Shown piece after piece: positions 5,278 through 12,503 of a stretch of DNA of 64,000 nucleotides. A program made the position numbers and the translations under genes. The stretch's first letter is position 1, and every line of letters begins with the position of its first letter. The stretch lies in NCBI GenBank assembly GCA_943788175.1, contig CALSPG010000006.1, positions 64,001 through 128,000 on the forward strand, in the 5' to 3' direction. The notes beneath the pieces were generated by a model. That model saw nothing but the letters and a program-made list of their open reading frames with translations. It was not told where the DNA came from and did no database searches. This DNA comes from an uncultured bacterium. Its GTDB lineage: Bacteria > Fidelibacterota > Marinisomatia > Marinisomatales > UBA1611.

Positions 5278-6117
5278 ATGATTAAAAAAGTTTACCTATT
5301 TTCCTTTGCGATGTTTTTTTCTTGCGATGTTGGTGATTACCAGGATTGTAATAGCGTAATAAATGGAGGAGCTTACTTTGATGAATGCGGTAATTGTGTT
5401 GGTGGAAGGACAGGATTGACAGAGTGTACTACCGATTGCAATGGAACTCTTGGGGGAACTTCTTTTTTAAACCCTTGTAATATTTGCGTTGAGGGTAACA
5501 CGGGTATAAGTTTAGACTCTTGCACGAGCTTAAGCTATAATGGTGAAACATATAGAACAATTATTATTGGAAATCAAGTTTGGTTAGGTGAAGATCTTAG
5601 AACTAAAAATTTTAATGATAACTTACCTATTCCAGATTTTGATATATCAGAAGCTGATTCGATAGGCACAAAATTAGTGATTCCTAATTCAGCAATACAA
5701 ACTGACCAAGTATTTTACAGTCCACTTGCTGCATTAAACAACATGATAGCTCCAGATGGATGGAGAGTCCCAACAAAATCAGATCTAGAAAACTTATTAG
5801 AGCAACTGGGTGGAAATTCTATAGCTAGCGGTAAATTAAAAGAAACTGGATATAAAAGTTGGAACTTTCCCAACCAATTTGCTACTAATGAATCAGGCTT
5901 TTCTGCAAAAGGAACTGGCTACAGTAGTTCACTAGGAACTTTGAAAAATGTTGGAGAACGGTATTCATTTTGGAGCATAAATACTTTTGATGAAGGTGAT
6001 ACAACAAATACACTATATTGGACTCTTAGGCTTAGCTTTAACAGCAATTATGCTATTCTTGCACCTGATAGTGCAAATATAGGTCACCCCATCAGGCTAA
6101 TAAAAAATAATAAATGA
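5278..6117 (+). CDS. Lipoprotein with Cys-rich repeats and FISUMP (Fibrobacter succinogenes major paralogous) domain
   Basis: Lipobox-like FFSC; two DCNxxxxGxxxxxxCxxCVxGxTG repeats; YRTIIIGNQVWLGEDL, PDGWRVPT, NESGFSA, GHPIRLIK. Confidence 0.85.
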   Translation: MIKKVYLFSFAMFFSCDVGDYQDCNSVINGGAYFDECGNCVGGRTGLTECTTDCNGTLGGTSFLNPCNICVEGNTGISLDSCTSLSYNGETYRTIIIGNQVWLGEDLRTKNFNDNLPIPDFDISEADSIGTKLVIPNSAIQTDQVFYSPLAALNNMIAPDGWRVPTKSDLENLLEQLGGNSIASGKLKETGYKSWNFPNQFATNESGFSAKGTGYSSSLGTLKNVGERYSFWSINTFDEGDTTNTLYWTLRLSFNSNYAILAPDSANIGHPIRLIKNNK

Positions 6118-7022
6118 GTCCTGCAAAATCTTCCATAATAGCATCTATGCTATCAATCTTTATTTCATGTAATAGTGGAATAAACAATGATGAAAACGAA
6201 ATAATAAGTGAAAATTCTTATTTAAGTATATCGAATACTAATAATCAAAGCGAGGTTTCAGGGTTAGAGAACATTTATATAAATGTTAAAAACTTTACAA
6301 ATATATGGAAAATCTATTTAGTAATAACGAATAATCAATCTATTGCATTTGAAGATAGAATTTTATTAGATACTACAAGCTCATCTGATAGTATAATTTA
6401 TAAGACTATTTGGGATACTAATTTATTTCCAAATGGTAATTATGATCTTTTTGCAGAAATAATTGACAGCACTAATCAGAGAATAATCTCGACAAAAAGT
6501 TTTACCATAATAAACTATAATACCTTAAAAATTATTAATAATCATGAGGTTTCAATTAATTATCTAATTAACTCGAATAGTGGGATGCTTTTTTCAAATT
6601 CTATAACGCACCTTCAGATAGAAAAAATATTTGATGAGACCAATCTAAAATGTGATATTCAAGAACTTCCTTGTGGAACAACATTCTCATATAATTTCTT
6701 CGTTAAACCTGAAAGTATCGATCAACCAATAATAATTGAACCGGATAGCAACTCATTTTTCCTCAGAATACAAAATAAATTATTAGTAGAAAACTCTATA
6801 AATTCTGTTTTAATTCAGGCAAATGAAAATATAGAAGAGTGCAACAATTTATCTATTCAAAATGATAATCAAGTTTATTCATTAGGCTACTTTAATTTAG
6901 ATAATGATTTGTACCAGCAAGGGAAAGTAGAAATATTAACTAGATATGGTAATAATACAGACACTACGAAGTTGACATTTTTTAATAAATCAATATTAAT
7001 TGATACATTAATTATTAATTAG
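6114..7022 (+). CDS. Hypothetical lipoprotein, possible Ig-like domain
   Basis: IFISC lipobox-like; WDTNLFPNGNYDLFAEIID resembles bacterial Ig-like folds; ATGA-type overlap region with upstream gene; very AT-rich. Confidence 0.65.
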   Translation: MSPAKSSIIASMLSIFISCNSGINNDENEIISENSYLSISNTNNQSEVSGLENIYINVKNFTNIWKIYLVITNNQSIAFEDRILLDTTSSSDSIIYKTIWDTNLFPNGNYDLFAEIIDSTNQRIISTKSFTIINYNTLKIINNHEVSINYLINSNSGMLFSNSITHLQIEKIFDETNLKCDIQELPCGTTFSYNFFVKPESIDQPIIIEPDSNSFFLRIQNKLLVENSINSVLIQANENIEECNNLSIQNDNQVYSLGYFNLDNDLYQQGKVEILTRYGNNTDTTKLTFFNKSILIDTLIIN

Positions 7023-7051: not shown

Positions 7052-8536
7052 CTACTTCAGCAATAATGCTTTTTTGGTATCAATAATTGAAGGAGTCTCT
7101 ATTTTTATAAAATACATTCCTGATGGAAATTTAGAAGCATTCCAGTTAATATTATGGAACCCAGCTGCAGTGTAAACATTATTAACCAGAATAGAAATCT
7201 GCTCACCCAACATATTATATACCACAACTGATAAGTTTGTTTCTGTTGGCAGAGAATAAGATATTGTTAATGTAGGATTAAATGGGTTTGGATAAAGACT
7301 TTTAATATTTGGAGTGTTTGGCAGAGATAATAATTCTCGTTCAGAAAATTCTTTTTCTACATTTGCTTTAATATGAAATCCTTTTTTTGATGCTATTACA
7401 ACATCATGAACATTTAAAATATGCTGACTAGGAATATTTAAATCAATTTTTTTAACTAAACTAGTTCCAGATAAATCATAGGCATAAAAATTATAATTAT
7501 TATTTTTAGAACTGTAAGTCATCGACCATCCATCTGGAAGAATTAATTGATCTAAATATCGATCAATCTTAGTAAAAGAGGATAAACTAAACTGGAATCC
7601 TCCAATTTCTGAAGTTGATTCAATGCTTATATAATTATTTTCGTTTTCTTGAGAAAAAAACAGGGTTCCTTCGTCTTCTTCATTGTTTAGAAAAGAAGGC
7701 ATATTATCAAACAACACCATATTAACTAGATTAACAACATCAATAATATTAACATTATTATCACCATTTATGTTTCCAGCCTGCTCTCTACATTCTGAAA
7801 TGGGTAATAACTCTGAATCATTTAGTTGAAAATGATCAAGTAATGCAACGACATCAAAAAAATTGATAATAGGCAAATTATTTTCGTCTAGGTCACCATT
7901 TACGTTTCCCGTGCTAAAGACATTAACATTATCGCAAATATCACAAGCATCCCCACTACCATCTTCATCTATGTCAGCTTGTAGGGGGTTAAAATTCTCG
8001 GGACAATTATCTTCATCAGTATCGATACCATCCTCATCAAGATCAGATGGCAAATCTTCTAACGCTTGATTAATTGTAGCTATTATTGCAGCTTGATTAT
8101 ATCCGGTATCTGAGTAGAGAACTTCACCATCGCCACCTATAACAACATTATGGGGTATGTATCCAACACCAAAAAGACCATAAATATTATTTACGTCATC
8201 AACAATAGGATGAGAAAGACCAAAAGTTGTTCCCCAACCGGTACAACTGTATGGCTGGTTCCAATCTTGACCAAACCCTACTAAGACTAATGAATCATTT
8301 GTATATTGTTGAAATACTGCTTCTGCCTGCGGAGCCTCCGTAGTACAAGATGGTCACCAAGAGGTAAAAAGATTAATCCATACAACCCTATCTCTACCAT
8401 TTTCCTCGTAAGACCACGTACCGTCACCATTATGACAGATATCTCCGGAAAAATCGTTCACATAATCGCCTACTGTATATGTCTGACCAAAAGCACTGAC
8501 GAAAAACAGTGAGTATATAATGAGAATAATTTTCAT
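7052..8536 (-). CDS. Predicted 494-aa secreted selenoprotein: UxxC thioredoxin-like domain + TSP3-like repeat + dockerin-like module + T9SS-type C-terminal sorting domain
   Basis: Track ORFs 8354..8536 and 7052..8053 share a frame (offset 483 nt) and the 300 nt between them are stop-free. Only interruption is TGA at 8354-8356 in INLFTSW-U-PSCTTEAP. Then YIPHNVVIGGDG, DLDEDGIDTDEDNCPENFNPLQADIDEDGSGDACD, GNINGDNNVNIIDVVNLVN, YPNPFNP...SGMYFIKI...KKALLLK. Confidence 0.85.
8322..8350 (-). promoter_or_regulatory. Putative bacterial SECIS element
   Basis: mRNA 3' of UGA: CCAUCUUGUACUA-CGGA-GGC-UCCG-CAGGCAGA; hand-folded hairpin with G-starting apical loop beginning 17 nt after UGA. Confidence 0.6.
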
Positions 8537-8648
8537 AAATAAACTTAGCCTTATTTAGTAATAAAAGTTAAATATTAAATAAGATAATATGTTTATAGCT
8601 CAATGCCATAAAAAATTAAAATTTTAATTTTTTGAATATGGTTTCAAT

Positions 8649-10634
8649 TTAAAATATGGCACTGTAGGAAAGTTTTAGCCCATCGTTAAATGGTTGTAAT
8701 ATTCTACAAATTCCGTTACTACAAACCAAGCCACCTTGAATAGACCCATAAAGAAATGAAATCCGCTGAGTTGATGAAAGATTATATGAAAATTCTAAAG
8801 ACACCCATTTATTCTTAGTAAATGGTGGTGGATTATTATCATTTCTCTGTCCTTTGAAATATTTTACGTCTCCATATATAAACGCTTCAAGAGGATTATA
8901 CTTTGGGTCAATAGTAATAATTTCTTGAACATTTGTCCAATCATAGTTTAGAGTAAGTGCCCACTTTGAAGCTTTACCAATTGATAATGAAAACATCCTA
9001 TTAATTTGAAAAGGTGTTTCGTTTGGGTAATTACTAGTAGTCTCATTGCTGGAGAGATTAGGATTAGTCTCATCATTTAATATCCATGTAGAATCGGCAT
9101 AATTATAGAACCCACCAGCATTTCCTTTTTTTACATTATTTTTATATCTTTCTTGATATGCAAGACCAAGTCCTATTGAATAGCCATTATTTAATGAGAG
9201 TGTAAAATCAATGGGAATTGTAAATGATTTTGATTTTTGATAAAGCATAGTCTCTATCTGATTTGTTGTGGTGTCCATGCTAACTATTTGAGAGTCTAAA
9301 TAGAACCAATCTTCTCCGTACCATATCGAATCAGTATACGTCCAATTTTCTGAAATAGTGTTAGAGAGACCTTTGAAAAACCTATTTACTTTAGTGACTT
9401 CCTCATTTGTTCCGATTGCTGTTTTGAACTGCAGTCTATTATTTAAAAGATAACCATTTAGTTCAGCATAAAACTCTAAGTAGGGTAATGCACTAAAATT
9501 AGTTGTCGGCAGGAGACCAGATATGTTTTTTCTATTCCATTCAATCGGACTTATAGATTCCCAAGTATCGTTTCTACTTAAATGAGAAAATTGTGTCACA
9601 ACTTGAAAACCATTCGACAAACCACCAGATAGCTCGACTTGATAACCGCGCTCATCATTTGCGTTAGTTTGATGAGCAGCTCTACCCAAAAAACTATGAT
9701 TTTGTTCGCGATATAGAATTGGCATAACCTGATAATCAATTCTATTACCATAATTATTTATAATATAATCAGTATCAACAGGGTTAAGTCTATCAAAACT
9801 ATACCGTTTGTATTCAAAGAACAAAGACCAGTTCCCTACATAATAATTTGAATTAAAATAAGCAGCTGAACCTCTTTTTAATGGCGTAAGTGATTCTATC
9901 TCTTGCCCTGAAAAATTAGTTTGGAAGGTTCTACTTTTTGATTGTTTGTCCATATATTCTATAAAAATATCCATATTAGACCCAAACCAAGATATATATG
10001 CCCCATGCAATCTATGATTAATATCCACAGTATCCATCACGCCAAGAGGTTTCAATTGATGAAGTTCATTTGACTGTAAAAAAGACAACCCATAACTAAA
10101 AGGGTAAGCCTCAAAATTAATGTTCGTGGCATCAATATTGTGGGTAAACTCAAACTCTGGGTGCCTCAGGTCAGCACCGAGTTGAGCATTCACAGTCTCT
10201 CCGCTCATTTGAGTCACACTAATATTGTCAGATTGATAATTAATCAGATAGCCTCTAGAACTATTGTCAAAATCAATACCCTGATCATCTAATTGGGCAA
10301 GTACTAAACCCCTTCCCCATACCTCATAAATATCACCATATTTTATTGACCATGGACCAGAACTATATTCAATTCGGTACTTTCTTAAATCTTTAATCGA
10401 AAATCCTAATTCTGGAGGATCTGAATATTCATATTGCAACCATGCCGAGAAATTGTTTTTAAAAAAATTAAGATCCATACGGTTTTCCATATAGGTAAAG
10501 TCATCATAGCTATCACCGAAATTCATGACAATACCCGCATTATAATTCCAAAAATCTAAATCAAAAACTGAGAAGGCGTCTTGTTCAGATTGAATAAGAA
10601 AAGGGAAAACAGCTAATAAAAATTTTTTGTACAT
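8649..10634 (-). CDS. Outer-membrane beta-barrel protein, DUF6029-like
   Basis: Signal peptide; GDIYEVWGRGLVL; aromatic-rich strands; C-terminal GGLVCSNGICRILQPFNDGLKLSYSAIF ending in Phe. Family name from recall. Confidence 0.75.
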   Translation of the reverse strand: MYKKFLLAVFPFLIQSEQDAFSVFDLDFWNYNAGIVMNFGDSYDDFTYMENRMDLNFFKNNFSAWLQYEYSDPPELGFSIKDLRKYRIEYSSGPWSIKYGDIYEVWGRGLVLAQLDDQGIDFDNSSRGYLINYQSDNISVTQMSGETVNAQLGADLRHPEFEFTHNIDATNINFEAYPFSYGLSFLQSNELHQLKPLGVMDTVDINHRLHGAYISWFGSNMDIFIEYMDKQSKSRTFQTNFSGQEIESLTPLKRGSAAYFNSNYYVGNWSLFFEYKRYSFDRLNPVDTDYIINNYGNRIDYQVMPILYREQNHSFLGRAAHQTNANDERGYQVELSGGLSNGFQVVTQFSHLSRNDTWESISPIEWNRKNISGLLPTTNFSALPYLEFYAELNGYLLNNRLQFKTAIGTNEEVTKVNRFFKGLSNTISENWTYTDSIWYGEDWFYLDSQIVSMDTTTNQIETMLYQKSKSFTIPIDFTLSLNNGYSIGLGLAYQERYKNNVKKGNAGGFYNYADSTWILNDETNPNLSSNETTSNYPNETPFQINRMFSLSIGKASKWALTLNYDWTNVQEIITIDPKYNPLEAFIYGDVKYFKGQRNDNNPPPFTKNKWVSLEFSYNLSSTQRISFLYGSIQGGLVCSNGICRILQPFNDGLKLSYSAIF

Positions 10635-10673
10635 TGTTGTATAATGATAAAAATAAAAATTTTGTTAAAATAA

Positions 10674-11189
10674 TTAATCCTTTTTTAAGGATAATAGAAG
10701 ACTTTCAATCTGTTCTTTAATTTCTAATTCTTCTCCAGGCATATACCCTTGATGTCGCCACTTTACTGTTGCATCTTTATTAACAAGAATCAGATTTGGC
10801 ATTATTTGGCCATTTAGCTTTTTTGAGATTTGCTGATTAGGGTCTATGCTTACTAAAAAATCGTAACCCTTACTATTTATATACGCTTTGACTTTACCTA
10901 AGCTCCTTGGTGTGTCTTGGTTTATCATTACTACTGTTAAACCCTGGTTTTTGTAATCATTATGATATTTGTTTAGATGCTTCATTACTTGCTTGCAAGG
11001 TTTACACCAAGTCGCCCAAAAATCAAGCAAAACAGGACCAGTCTTTAAAAGCTTATACAATGTAGTTTTTTTCCCATTTAATAATTTTAGATCAATGTTT
11101 GGGATTTTACCAAGCGATACATTATCTTGGCTATAAATAGATATCATATTGAAAGATAAAATAAGAATTATTAATTTTATTTTCTTCAT
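10674..11189 (-). CDS. TlpA-family periplasmic thiol-disulfide oxidoreductase
   Basis: LLDFWATWCKPC, cis-Pro loop IMPNLILV, signal peptide. Confidence 0.92.
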   Translation of the reverse strand: MKKIKLIILILSFNMISIYSQDNVSLGKIPNIDLKLLNGKKTTLYKLLKTGPVLLDFWATWCKPCKQVMKHLNKYHNDYKNQGLTVVMINQDTPRSLGKVKAYINSKGYDFLVSIDPNQQISKKLNGQIMPNLILVNKDATVKWRHQGYMPGEELEIKEQIESLLLSLKKD

Positions 11190-11192
11190 ATG

Positions 11193-12503
11193 CTAAAGCA
11201 CAGGCTCCAAAAAATTTTTTAATTCATTTTCATTTATAAACTTCAAACTTACATTGCTTAGATTTTCAACATCGGACATCGGAAGAATAAATTCATATTT
11301 TGCATGAATATTTACTGTCTCCATAGCAACCTGTAAGGACCATCCCCCGACTGTAAATTGAATCATTGGTGTAAACTGGTTTTCTGGAAGGTATAATACT
11401 TTTTCGCTCTTTTTAGAGTGCCATTGCTCTTCAGGAGTATCAGCAACTATTACAATTGGAGTACCTTCTTTATTGAAAAATCTAATTACAGGAACGGTAC
11501 GATGACTGCCTGAAATGATACGATTTGTTAGCTCATCAGAAAGGTTAAATGATTCTTTGCTAAAATAAAAAATTGTAAGACTTCCATTCTGTTCAATTCC
11601 TGTATATGGAAGAGTGTTTAACATTTCCTTAATTATTTCATCTTTAAGAGAATATGTAACATGAAATTGAACAGTGATATAACTGTCATCATCTTTATGA
11701 TAGATAAAGCTGGGTTTTTTCATTTCAACATCATAAGGGTTATCTATCAATTTATTTAAAACATCTTTAAGCAATTCAGTGTTTGGTTTTAAATCAGGAT
11801 CTTCTTCTACTAACTGATTTGCAGAAAAATCCATTGTCCACTCACCACCGTTATCAAAAAGGGTTACATCATTCTTAGATGTTAAGTTTTGATTTTCTTT
11901 TAAACCTAAAAGAACATCCATAGACTCTTCAAGTTTTTTAAATTCCTGGCTCAAGTTTTTTGTTACCATTTCAGACTTAACTGTTACTGGATCACGAGTC
12001 ATAGCAGGTTTAGGATCAATAAATTTTGGTAACACTACCCCTACACTATGTTTCTTATTTGGAAGATATGAAATTATCATCGAGCGTATATTATCACTAA
12101 CCTCATTTTTCATTTTACTTATATCACTATATTCAGCAGAGATATCCTTTGACTCTATTTGATCCCAAGTTGCTAAGTCAATTAATTGGACGGATACATT
12201 AATTTTTTCTAACTGCCTTGAATATTTTCCTAGAAGTAGAAGGTTTCTTGAGGAAATAGGTTGTTTAAGCATAAGTGATCTATCGTTCATAATGACTTCA
12301 AGATCTTGCTTGTTTTGAATCAATAAACCTGGTTCATTTTTAAATTTATTACTAACCATATCAGATAACCCTGATGCAATCCATTCAATAGTCGGATCAT
12401 CTTTTAGATTATCAAAAGGTATTACATAAAAATACACTATAGGCTGCCTAGCAGCAAGCGTAGCTAAAAAAAGTAATAATGTTAGAGTTTTCCGCATCCT
12501 CAT
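11193..12503 (-). CDS. Exported hypothetical protein with TolB-N/CsgG-like N-terminal domain
   Basis: Signal peptide; VIPFDNLKDDPTIEWIASGLSDMV...LLGKYS...VSVQLIDL pattern; 3 nt from the TlpA gene. Confidence 0.65.
   Translation of the reverse strand: MRMRKTLTLLLFLATLAARQPIVYFYVIPFDNLKDDPTIEWIASGLSDMVSNKFKNEPGLLIQNKQDLEVIMNDRSLMLKQPISSRNLLLLGKYSRQLEKINVSVQLIDLATWDQIESKDISAEYSDISKMKNEVSDNIRSMIISYLPNKKHSVGVVLPKFIDPKPAMTRDPVTVKSEMVTKNLSQEFKKLEESMDVLLGLKENQNLTSKNDVTLFDNGGEWTMDFSANQLVEEDPDLKPNTELLKDVLNKLIDNPYDVEMKKPSFIYHKDDDSYITVQFHVTYSLKDEIIKEMLNTLPYTGIEQNGSLTIFYFSKESFNLSDELTNRIISGSHRTVPVIRFFNKEGTPIVIVADTPEEQWHSKKSEKVLYLPENQFTPMIQFTVGGWSLQVAMETVNIHAKYEFILPMSDVENLSNVSLKFINENELKNFLEPVL

Follow-up and report, generated by a model that had tools for sequence, protein, structure and literature searches.

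Three adjacent genes in a 64,000-nucleotide stretch of DNA from an uncultured bacterium (the window) encode a periplasmic TlpA-type thioredoxin, an outer-membrane beta-barrel of the DUF6029 family and an exported thioredoxin-fold protein, and they constitute a real, conserved and undescribed three-part module. We propose that the module probably operates a thiol-disulfide relay across the outer membrane, in which electrons would pass from DsbD to TlpA, from TlpA to a dithiol hairpin of the barrel and from the hairpin to a surface UxxC client; a predicted complex points to the inner half of this route and comparative genomics to the outer half. We also lean towards regarding DUF6029 as the DsbD counterpart of the outer membrane: the inward dithiol hairpin of its 24-strand barrel would be loaded by TlpA and unloaded by surface thioredoxins or selenoenzymes. 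No description of a trans-outer-membrane thiol relay was found in the open-access literature, supplements aside.

The locus consists of four co-oriented minus-strand genes with glnS and gltX upstream (Table 1), in a marine genome whose homologues are named mostly after Marinimicrobia/Fidelibacterota. ORF coordinates in the window bear out the intergenic gaps of 3, 39 and 112 nt given in an earlier note on this DNA, and the redox-type pairs that it assigned to three consecutive genes are all present: TWCKPC in TlpA, C-x4-C in the barrel and UPSC in the selenoprotein. That note had also listed the first gene, for a 436-aa protein, with the other three; this protein has no cysteine and is a passenger of gltX-glnS. 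Its gene lies upstream of 27 of 49 evaluable Marinisomatota barrels, none was found in loci of the Bacteroidota group and it is absent from second (duplicated) TlpA-barrel cassettes, a patchy linkage that rules it out as a module member. The redox unit is TlpA, the DUF6029 barrel and the exported thioredoxin. The TolB-N/CsgG-like label of the 436-aa protein survives weakly and for its N-terminal domain only, and fails for the rest of the protein (Foldseek against CsgG/TolB, E 3e-5, TM about 0.2 over the query); no Pfam or NCBIfam family matched and Atlas leads stood at 0.78-0.82. Contigs from four RNA libraries span the genes, some bridging junctions (8164-10301, 10090-10857), with cover that is flat over 15.5 kb and DNA possibly present. 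A promoter scan gave no signal (45 sites against 47.6 expected). On the plus strand, a Fib_succ_major lipoprotein-like gene and an exported gene without family (window 5278-7022) converge on the selenoprotein gene.

Table 1. Features of the locus, in positions of the window.
Feature	Position	Strand	Remarks
436-aa exported protein, TolB-N/CsgG-like N-domain, cysteine-free	11193..12503	-	local neighbour of gltX-glnS, outside core
Barrel-dedicated periplasmic TlpA-type thioredoxin, 171 aa	10674..11189	-	TWCKPC, Redoxin/AhpC-TSA family
DUF6029 outer-membrane beta-barrel, 661 aa, C-terminus GGLVCSNGICRILQPF...F	8649..10634	-	PF19494 and structure model
C638-x4-C643 beta-hairpin (GGxxCxxGxC) of barrel, between last two strands	8706..8723	-	
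Secreted selenoprotein (client), 494 aa with one in-frame TGA read through, TSWUPSC	7052..8536	-	
In-frame TGA (codon 61), predicted selenocysteine	8354..8356	-	TGA kept in relatives, Cys in other homologues
SECIS-like GC-rich hairpin, 4-bp stem, loop opening with G	8330..8340	-	16 nt from UGA start
T9SS C-terminal sorting domain of selenoprotein	7070..7297	-	PF18962 E 1e-11; TIGR04183

The barrel is a clear DUF6029 member (99.7 bits against a gathering cut-off of 27, E 2e-28; Atlas 0.99). Its AlphaFold2 model, built from 148 sequences (pLDDT 94.9), has about 24 wall strands and lacks an N-terminal plug. The protein has only two cysteines, both on a small hairpin between the last two strands. 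The C-terminus of outer-membrane barrels is usually periplasmic, and by this rule the Cys hairpin has the topology of an outer loop. A variable Cys pair would speak against a relay, and this is not what we observed: all 172 barrels whose C-terminus is intact have C-x4-C in the loci sampled (including the best 80 of 247 named), and the pair is present in 114 of 116 representatives of at least 460 aa among the best 150 of 1843 matches, the two others lacking the C-terminal motif of the family as well. In 107 of 135 barrels there is no Cys beyond the pair. No fusion of the barrel to other domains occurred among 3861 longer candidates, which is weak evidence. A sequence search of solved structures found no homologue of the barrel, its RecA matches being spurious, and mutual-information contacts within the barrel were discarded as an artefact of invariant columns, which made up the top pairs.

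The TlpA of the window (W-C62-K-P-C65) has a signal peptide and neither a lipobox nor a T9SS tail. It has the fold, WCxPC, cis-Pro and export signal of TlpA/ResA-type redoxins (PF08534, 77.7 bits), and among solved structures its profile matches PDB 2m72 best (E 7e-44). Because it scores under the ResA/TlpA equivalog cut-offs, we place it in a separate subfamily, which bears the motifs DxPRS and HxGYxPGDE, with C and P invariant.

How closely is this TlpA tied to the barrel? Counts over 121 Marinisomatota and 201 Bacteroidota genomes (322 together) overstate independence, because the profiles (A6 and A8) derive from genes next to barrels, cut-offs were fixed once the scores had been viewed and absences cluster in whole families. 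On these counts, the dedicated TlpA co-occurs with the barrel also in genomes where the two genes are unlinked. Among Marinisomatota, 62 genomes encode the barrel and 64 the dedicated TlpA, and in the two with TlpA only the barrels are cut by contig ends. All 52 barrel-positive Bacteroidota encode the dedicated TlpA (51 at E<=2e-45), and in the 149 barrel-less ones no TlpA-profile match is better than 4e-41; nine reach 1e-34 to 4e-41, and the five of these that were inspected have no barrel near the match. Distances among TlpA sequences correlate with those among barrels (r 0.91), and each paralogous cassette retains its own pair. The module is kept in genomes as small as about 1 Mb. SprA occurs in all 121 Marinisomatota and the barrel in about half of them (62-64), so that the barrel is not a core T9SS component. 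On a quick tree, second Marinisomatota barrels at two loci (L059, G038:C10; L076, G052:C71) group with Bacteroidota/Balneolota barrels, a placement for which cassette transfer is possible.

Predictions of the barrel together with TlpA gave ipSAE values of 0.85, 0.85 and 0.84, whereas none of three controls exceeded 0.00; among pairs with a solved structure 116 of 157 attain the score mark, and among mismatched pairs 2 of 215 do (approximate for our own alignments), and the score expresses model confidence, which close cousins of true partners pass too. At least 89% of contacts are common to the runs, with partner pLDDT of at least 87. In the model, the interface joins barrel C638 and G641-C643 to TlpA residues 59-65, including both cysteines, and also comprises DxPRS and HxGYxPGDE. 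TlpA sits in the periplasmic mouth, touching the wall all round, and the strand ends that it contacts alternate exactly as the periplasmic face. Since the conserved outer loops 103-116 and 303-312 touch TlpA as well, three loops appear to be folded into the lumen. Conservation is higher at the interface (0.47) than elsewhere (0.29). A Cys pair buried out of reach, named beforehand as another observation against a relay, is not what the model predicts: the WCKPC region of TlpA contacts both barrel cysteines. The predicted complex supports TlpA binding and access to the barrel hairpin from the periplasmic side.

We examined the neighbourhood of the barrel in 60 Marinisomatota regions plus the window, in 40 of the 52 barrel-positive Bacteroidota genomes and in further loci of one clade (the best 80 of 247 named; Balneolaceae, Rhodothermales, KSB1, Bacteroidales, Flavobacteriaceae, Saprospiraceae), with three overlapping regions and identical barrels dropped. 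Lost linkage had likewise been named as grounds for abandoning the relay, and linkage proved conserved: in this sample, which includes the best 80 of 247, TlpA immediately precedes the barrel in 154 of 166 evaluable loci and is no farther than 2.5 kb away in 162; a CxxC/UxxC gene of thioredoxin fold is as close in 145 of 151, and the client bears a T9SS tail or, by a loose pattern, a lipobox-like motif in 124 of 151. Client profiles were derived from such barrel neighbours. An independent Pfam scan of 40 picked neighbours returned redoxin, Omp28 or DUF1223 in 35 and a T9SS tail in 21; one of the 40 is DsbD, directly before tlpA-barrel (L068:10537-12465, minus strand). Client class switches at least nine times on a quick barrel tree, and two thioredoxin families alternate. 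No client lies within 2.5 kb of the barrel in 6 of 35 Bacteroidota cases. In many Marinimicrobia clients a dockerin-like part forms the C-terminus and a tail is missing, which makes their surface location uncertain.

The clients follow the barrel across genomes. Of 121 Marinisomatota genomes, 34 have Omp28 clients, and each of these belongs to the 64 with the dedicated TlpA; of 201 Bacteroidota genomes, 31 score above the cut-off, all barrel-positive, and five barrel-less ones have weak matches. In the Marinisomatota sample, 34 genomes match the client family of the window at E<=1e-27, and 33 of them encode the barrel; weaker matches in 10 barrel-less genomes lie in ordinary TlpA-sized frames. 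In the exception (G121; completeness 96%, 110 contigs), five Sec clients are present, their array sitting at contig ends, and neither a barrel nor a dedicated TlpA was found. The earlier note placed TlpA genes and Omp28-like cargo beside DUF6029-like barrels in Bacteroidota; the TlpA and thioredoxin-fold linkage holds, and the client of the window is redoxin-type, not Omp28-type. Four loci (L042, L057, L060 and L067, in G010, G016, G011 and G019) carry arrays of up to five UxxC/CxxC clients and an additional TlpA-barrel cassette next to a gene for a SpoIIE-type sensor. By eye, Bacteroidota cassettes are often flanked by a small PorT-like-looking barrel (the gene after Omp28 in L178, L183 and L214) or by a PorA-like-looking protein (neighbour genes in L185, L194 and L195).

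The selenoprotein of the window comprises, in order, a signal peptide, a redoxin domain (U61-P-S-C64), a TSP3/dockerin-like part, a linker domain and a T9SS type A tail. Sec at its UGA is supported by what the sequence offers, namely a UGA aligned with Cys, a SECIS-like hairpin and sel machinery (tRNA-Sec, selA and selB in the genome). Of 55 clients that encode Sec, 41 have a short GC-rich inverted repeat at a fixed distance past this codon; of 30 that encode Cys, 3 have one, and of 58 TlpA genes, none. The 93-nt stretch taken whole is not more stable than shuffles (z +1.6). With its signal peptide and tail, in a genome with SprA, PorV and 77 tail matches, the client is a predicted T9SS type A cargo. 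C34 and C98 (8243-8437, minus strand) form a second, nearly invariant Cys pair of the redoxin domain, which may be either structural or resolving.

Elsewhere in this genome, two UxxC proteins with T9SS tails and a hairpin after the UGA are unlinked to the barrel (G000:C1:333769-334614, minus strand; G000:C8:48119-48898, plus strand) and are candidate extra clients. A thioredoxin-like frame that contains TDWUTWC and lacks a T9SS tail (G000:C2:67302-67958, minus strand) is likely another selenoprotein. The N-terminal part of sprA lies in short frames separate from the 1791-aa main frame (G000:C7:328244-333384, plus strand), through either a frameshift or an assembly error. A full DsbD is encoded. 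Among 80 tail-bearing proteins, 38 have at least four Cys, and such Cys-rich secreted proteins, together with the two unlinked UxxC proteins, suggest that the task at the surface is disulfide reduction, reshuffling or repair.

What would be the path of the electrons? DsbD would reduce the dedicated periplasmic TlpA, which, following the complex model, would dock in the periplasmic mouth of the barrel against the lumen-folded loops and reduce C638/C643. The thioredoxin-fold client would reach the surface by the T9SS or as a lipoprotein and, as the genomic linkage suggests, might enter the outer vestibule to be reduced by the same hairpin. The reduced client, here a UxxC selenoenzyme, could then reduce or reshuffle disulfides, or repair oxidised residues, of surface and secreted proteins. 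We infer that electron flow is outward.

Alternatively, the barrel could be an usher- or Slam-like export pore that translocates the neighbouring thioredoxins or other cargo, with TlpA and the hairpin gating the pore or reducing cargo in transit. The best fold match of the barrel is indeed the FimD/PapC usher pore (Z 18.6, rmsd 4.1, 359 aligned), clients without a tail need some way out, and Porphyromonas gingivalis PorA (PG2172), numbered beside the Omp28 protein PG2173 and the thioredoxin PG2175 (PMC13744359), surfaces without the T9SS (PMC7712824; see also PMC8754138 for PorA export). In shape the barrel is usher-like; it has no usher Pfam match, and its model has no plug or periplasmic chaperone-binding domains. 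However, the usher match is a generic one, at 9% identity, and the model's fold-search matches in general are to generic barrels only. Clients also vary in family, size (170-870 aa) and export signal and share only the CxxC/UxxC fold, a T9SS tail is present on 21 of the 40 scanned neighbours while SprA is in 121 of 121 Marinisomatota, and TlpA is predicted to contact the wall of the periplasmic mouth on all sides. We thus consider an export pore unlikely.

A second possibility is that TlpA serves as a maturation factor or permanent plug and the Cys pair as a structural or gating disulfide, the barrel being a channel or receptor for small thiols, disulfides, metals or polysaccharide on whose substrate the surface thioredoxins act. 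The complex model would suit a plug and a donor equally. TonB-dependent transporters are the top Foldseek matches (TM about 0.4), and the one work found on DUF6029 reports HHpred similarity to Wzi-like barrels and suggests polysaccharide export (PMC9603273, as far as its text is available). Against this, TonB-dependent transporters have an N-terminal plug and 22 strands, whereas the DUF6029 barrel begins at model residue 14, without a plug domain, and has about 24 strands; the Wzi fold match is weak (Z 13.1), and no polysaccharide genes were noticed among the neighbours, which were viewed without systematic annotation. Moreover, both active-site Cys of TlpA are kept in 135 of 135 sequences, and the dependence of Omp28 on the barrel would be left unexplained. 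We regard this possibility, too, as improbable. Inward flow, in which surface thioredoxins insert disulfides or harvest external reductant and electrons pass from the hairpin to TlpA, is very doubtful: the contacts are symmetric regarding direction, Cys-rich tail-bearing proteins abound (38 of 80) and no VKOR was found, but TlpA-type proteins act as reductants and are supplied by DsbD/ScsB (PMC3322552), dsbD precedes tlpA-barrel in L068 and the T9SS surface thioredoxin HBP35 has reductase-type activity (PMC2907840).

The outward relay makes a sharp prediction, with two named cysteines and one named partner. If true, it would assign a role to an unstudied family that about half of the sampled Marinisomatota genomes and a quarter of the Bacteroidota ones encode. 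The FCB group, from streamlined marine SAR406 to oral Bacteroidales, would then have a heme-free connection between reductant in the cytoplasm and the cell surface, and an additional kind of trans-envelope electron transfer would be known.

Several parts of the module have known relatives. GOS_C proteins, marine UxxC selenoproteins that the available text of PMC2398784 describes without a function and that are also listed in PMC13188914, take the place of the client in relatives (563 and 518 bits for NF045500) and have the TSP3/dockerin-like part in common with the window client. In the window, however, the NF045500 match is confined to this tail part (105.6 bits against a cut-off of 200), and the catalytic domain, which it does not match, is ResA-like. 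Geobacter ExtI was considered as a Sec-porin precedent and set aside, the selenoprotein there being ExtKL (PMC5877670). In P. gingivalis, PG2174 is an uncharacterised vesicle protein (PMC4335976), and the accessible portions of these sources describe no function for the trio within PG2175-PG2172; the client of the window is instead a redoxin-type selenoprotein. HBP35 (PG0616), a surface T9SS cargo of P. gingivalis with thioredoxin activity (PMC2907840), is a precedent for the client, with Cys where the window client has Sec. For surface thioredoxins such as HBP35, the Omp28 family and the abundant marine GOS_C selenoproteins, no re-reduction route outside the outer membrane is described, and a dithiol-relaying barrel, if true, would be such a route for surface thioredoxins and selenoproteins.

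In porin-cytochrome conduits such as MtrAB, a large barrel is entered by a periplasmic redox protein and electrons move outward. MtrAB (PDB 6r2q) aligns with the DUF6029 barrel at Z 14.6, rmsd 6.4 and 8% identity and is unrelated in sequence. Such conduits have CxxCH multiheme partners, whereas no heme motifs were found here and the barrel neighbours have redoxin and Omp28 folds; the proposed relay would differ in being a two-electron dithiol exchange on the barrel's own loop. In the DsbD/ScsB-to-TlpA pathways, a membrane Cys pair is likewise met by thioredoxin folds on both sides and TlpA is the carrier (PMC3322552). Those proteins are helical, lie in the inner membrane and end in the periplasm, whereas here an outer-membrane beta-barrel would serve a client with a T9SS tail. 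The hairpin chemistry may nevertheless be common to both, LVCSNGICR of the barrel and QVCNERLCY in the N-terminal domain of this genome's DsbD having the same C-x4-C spacing.
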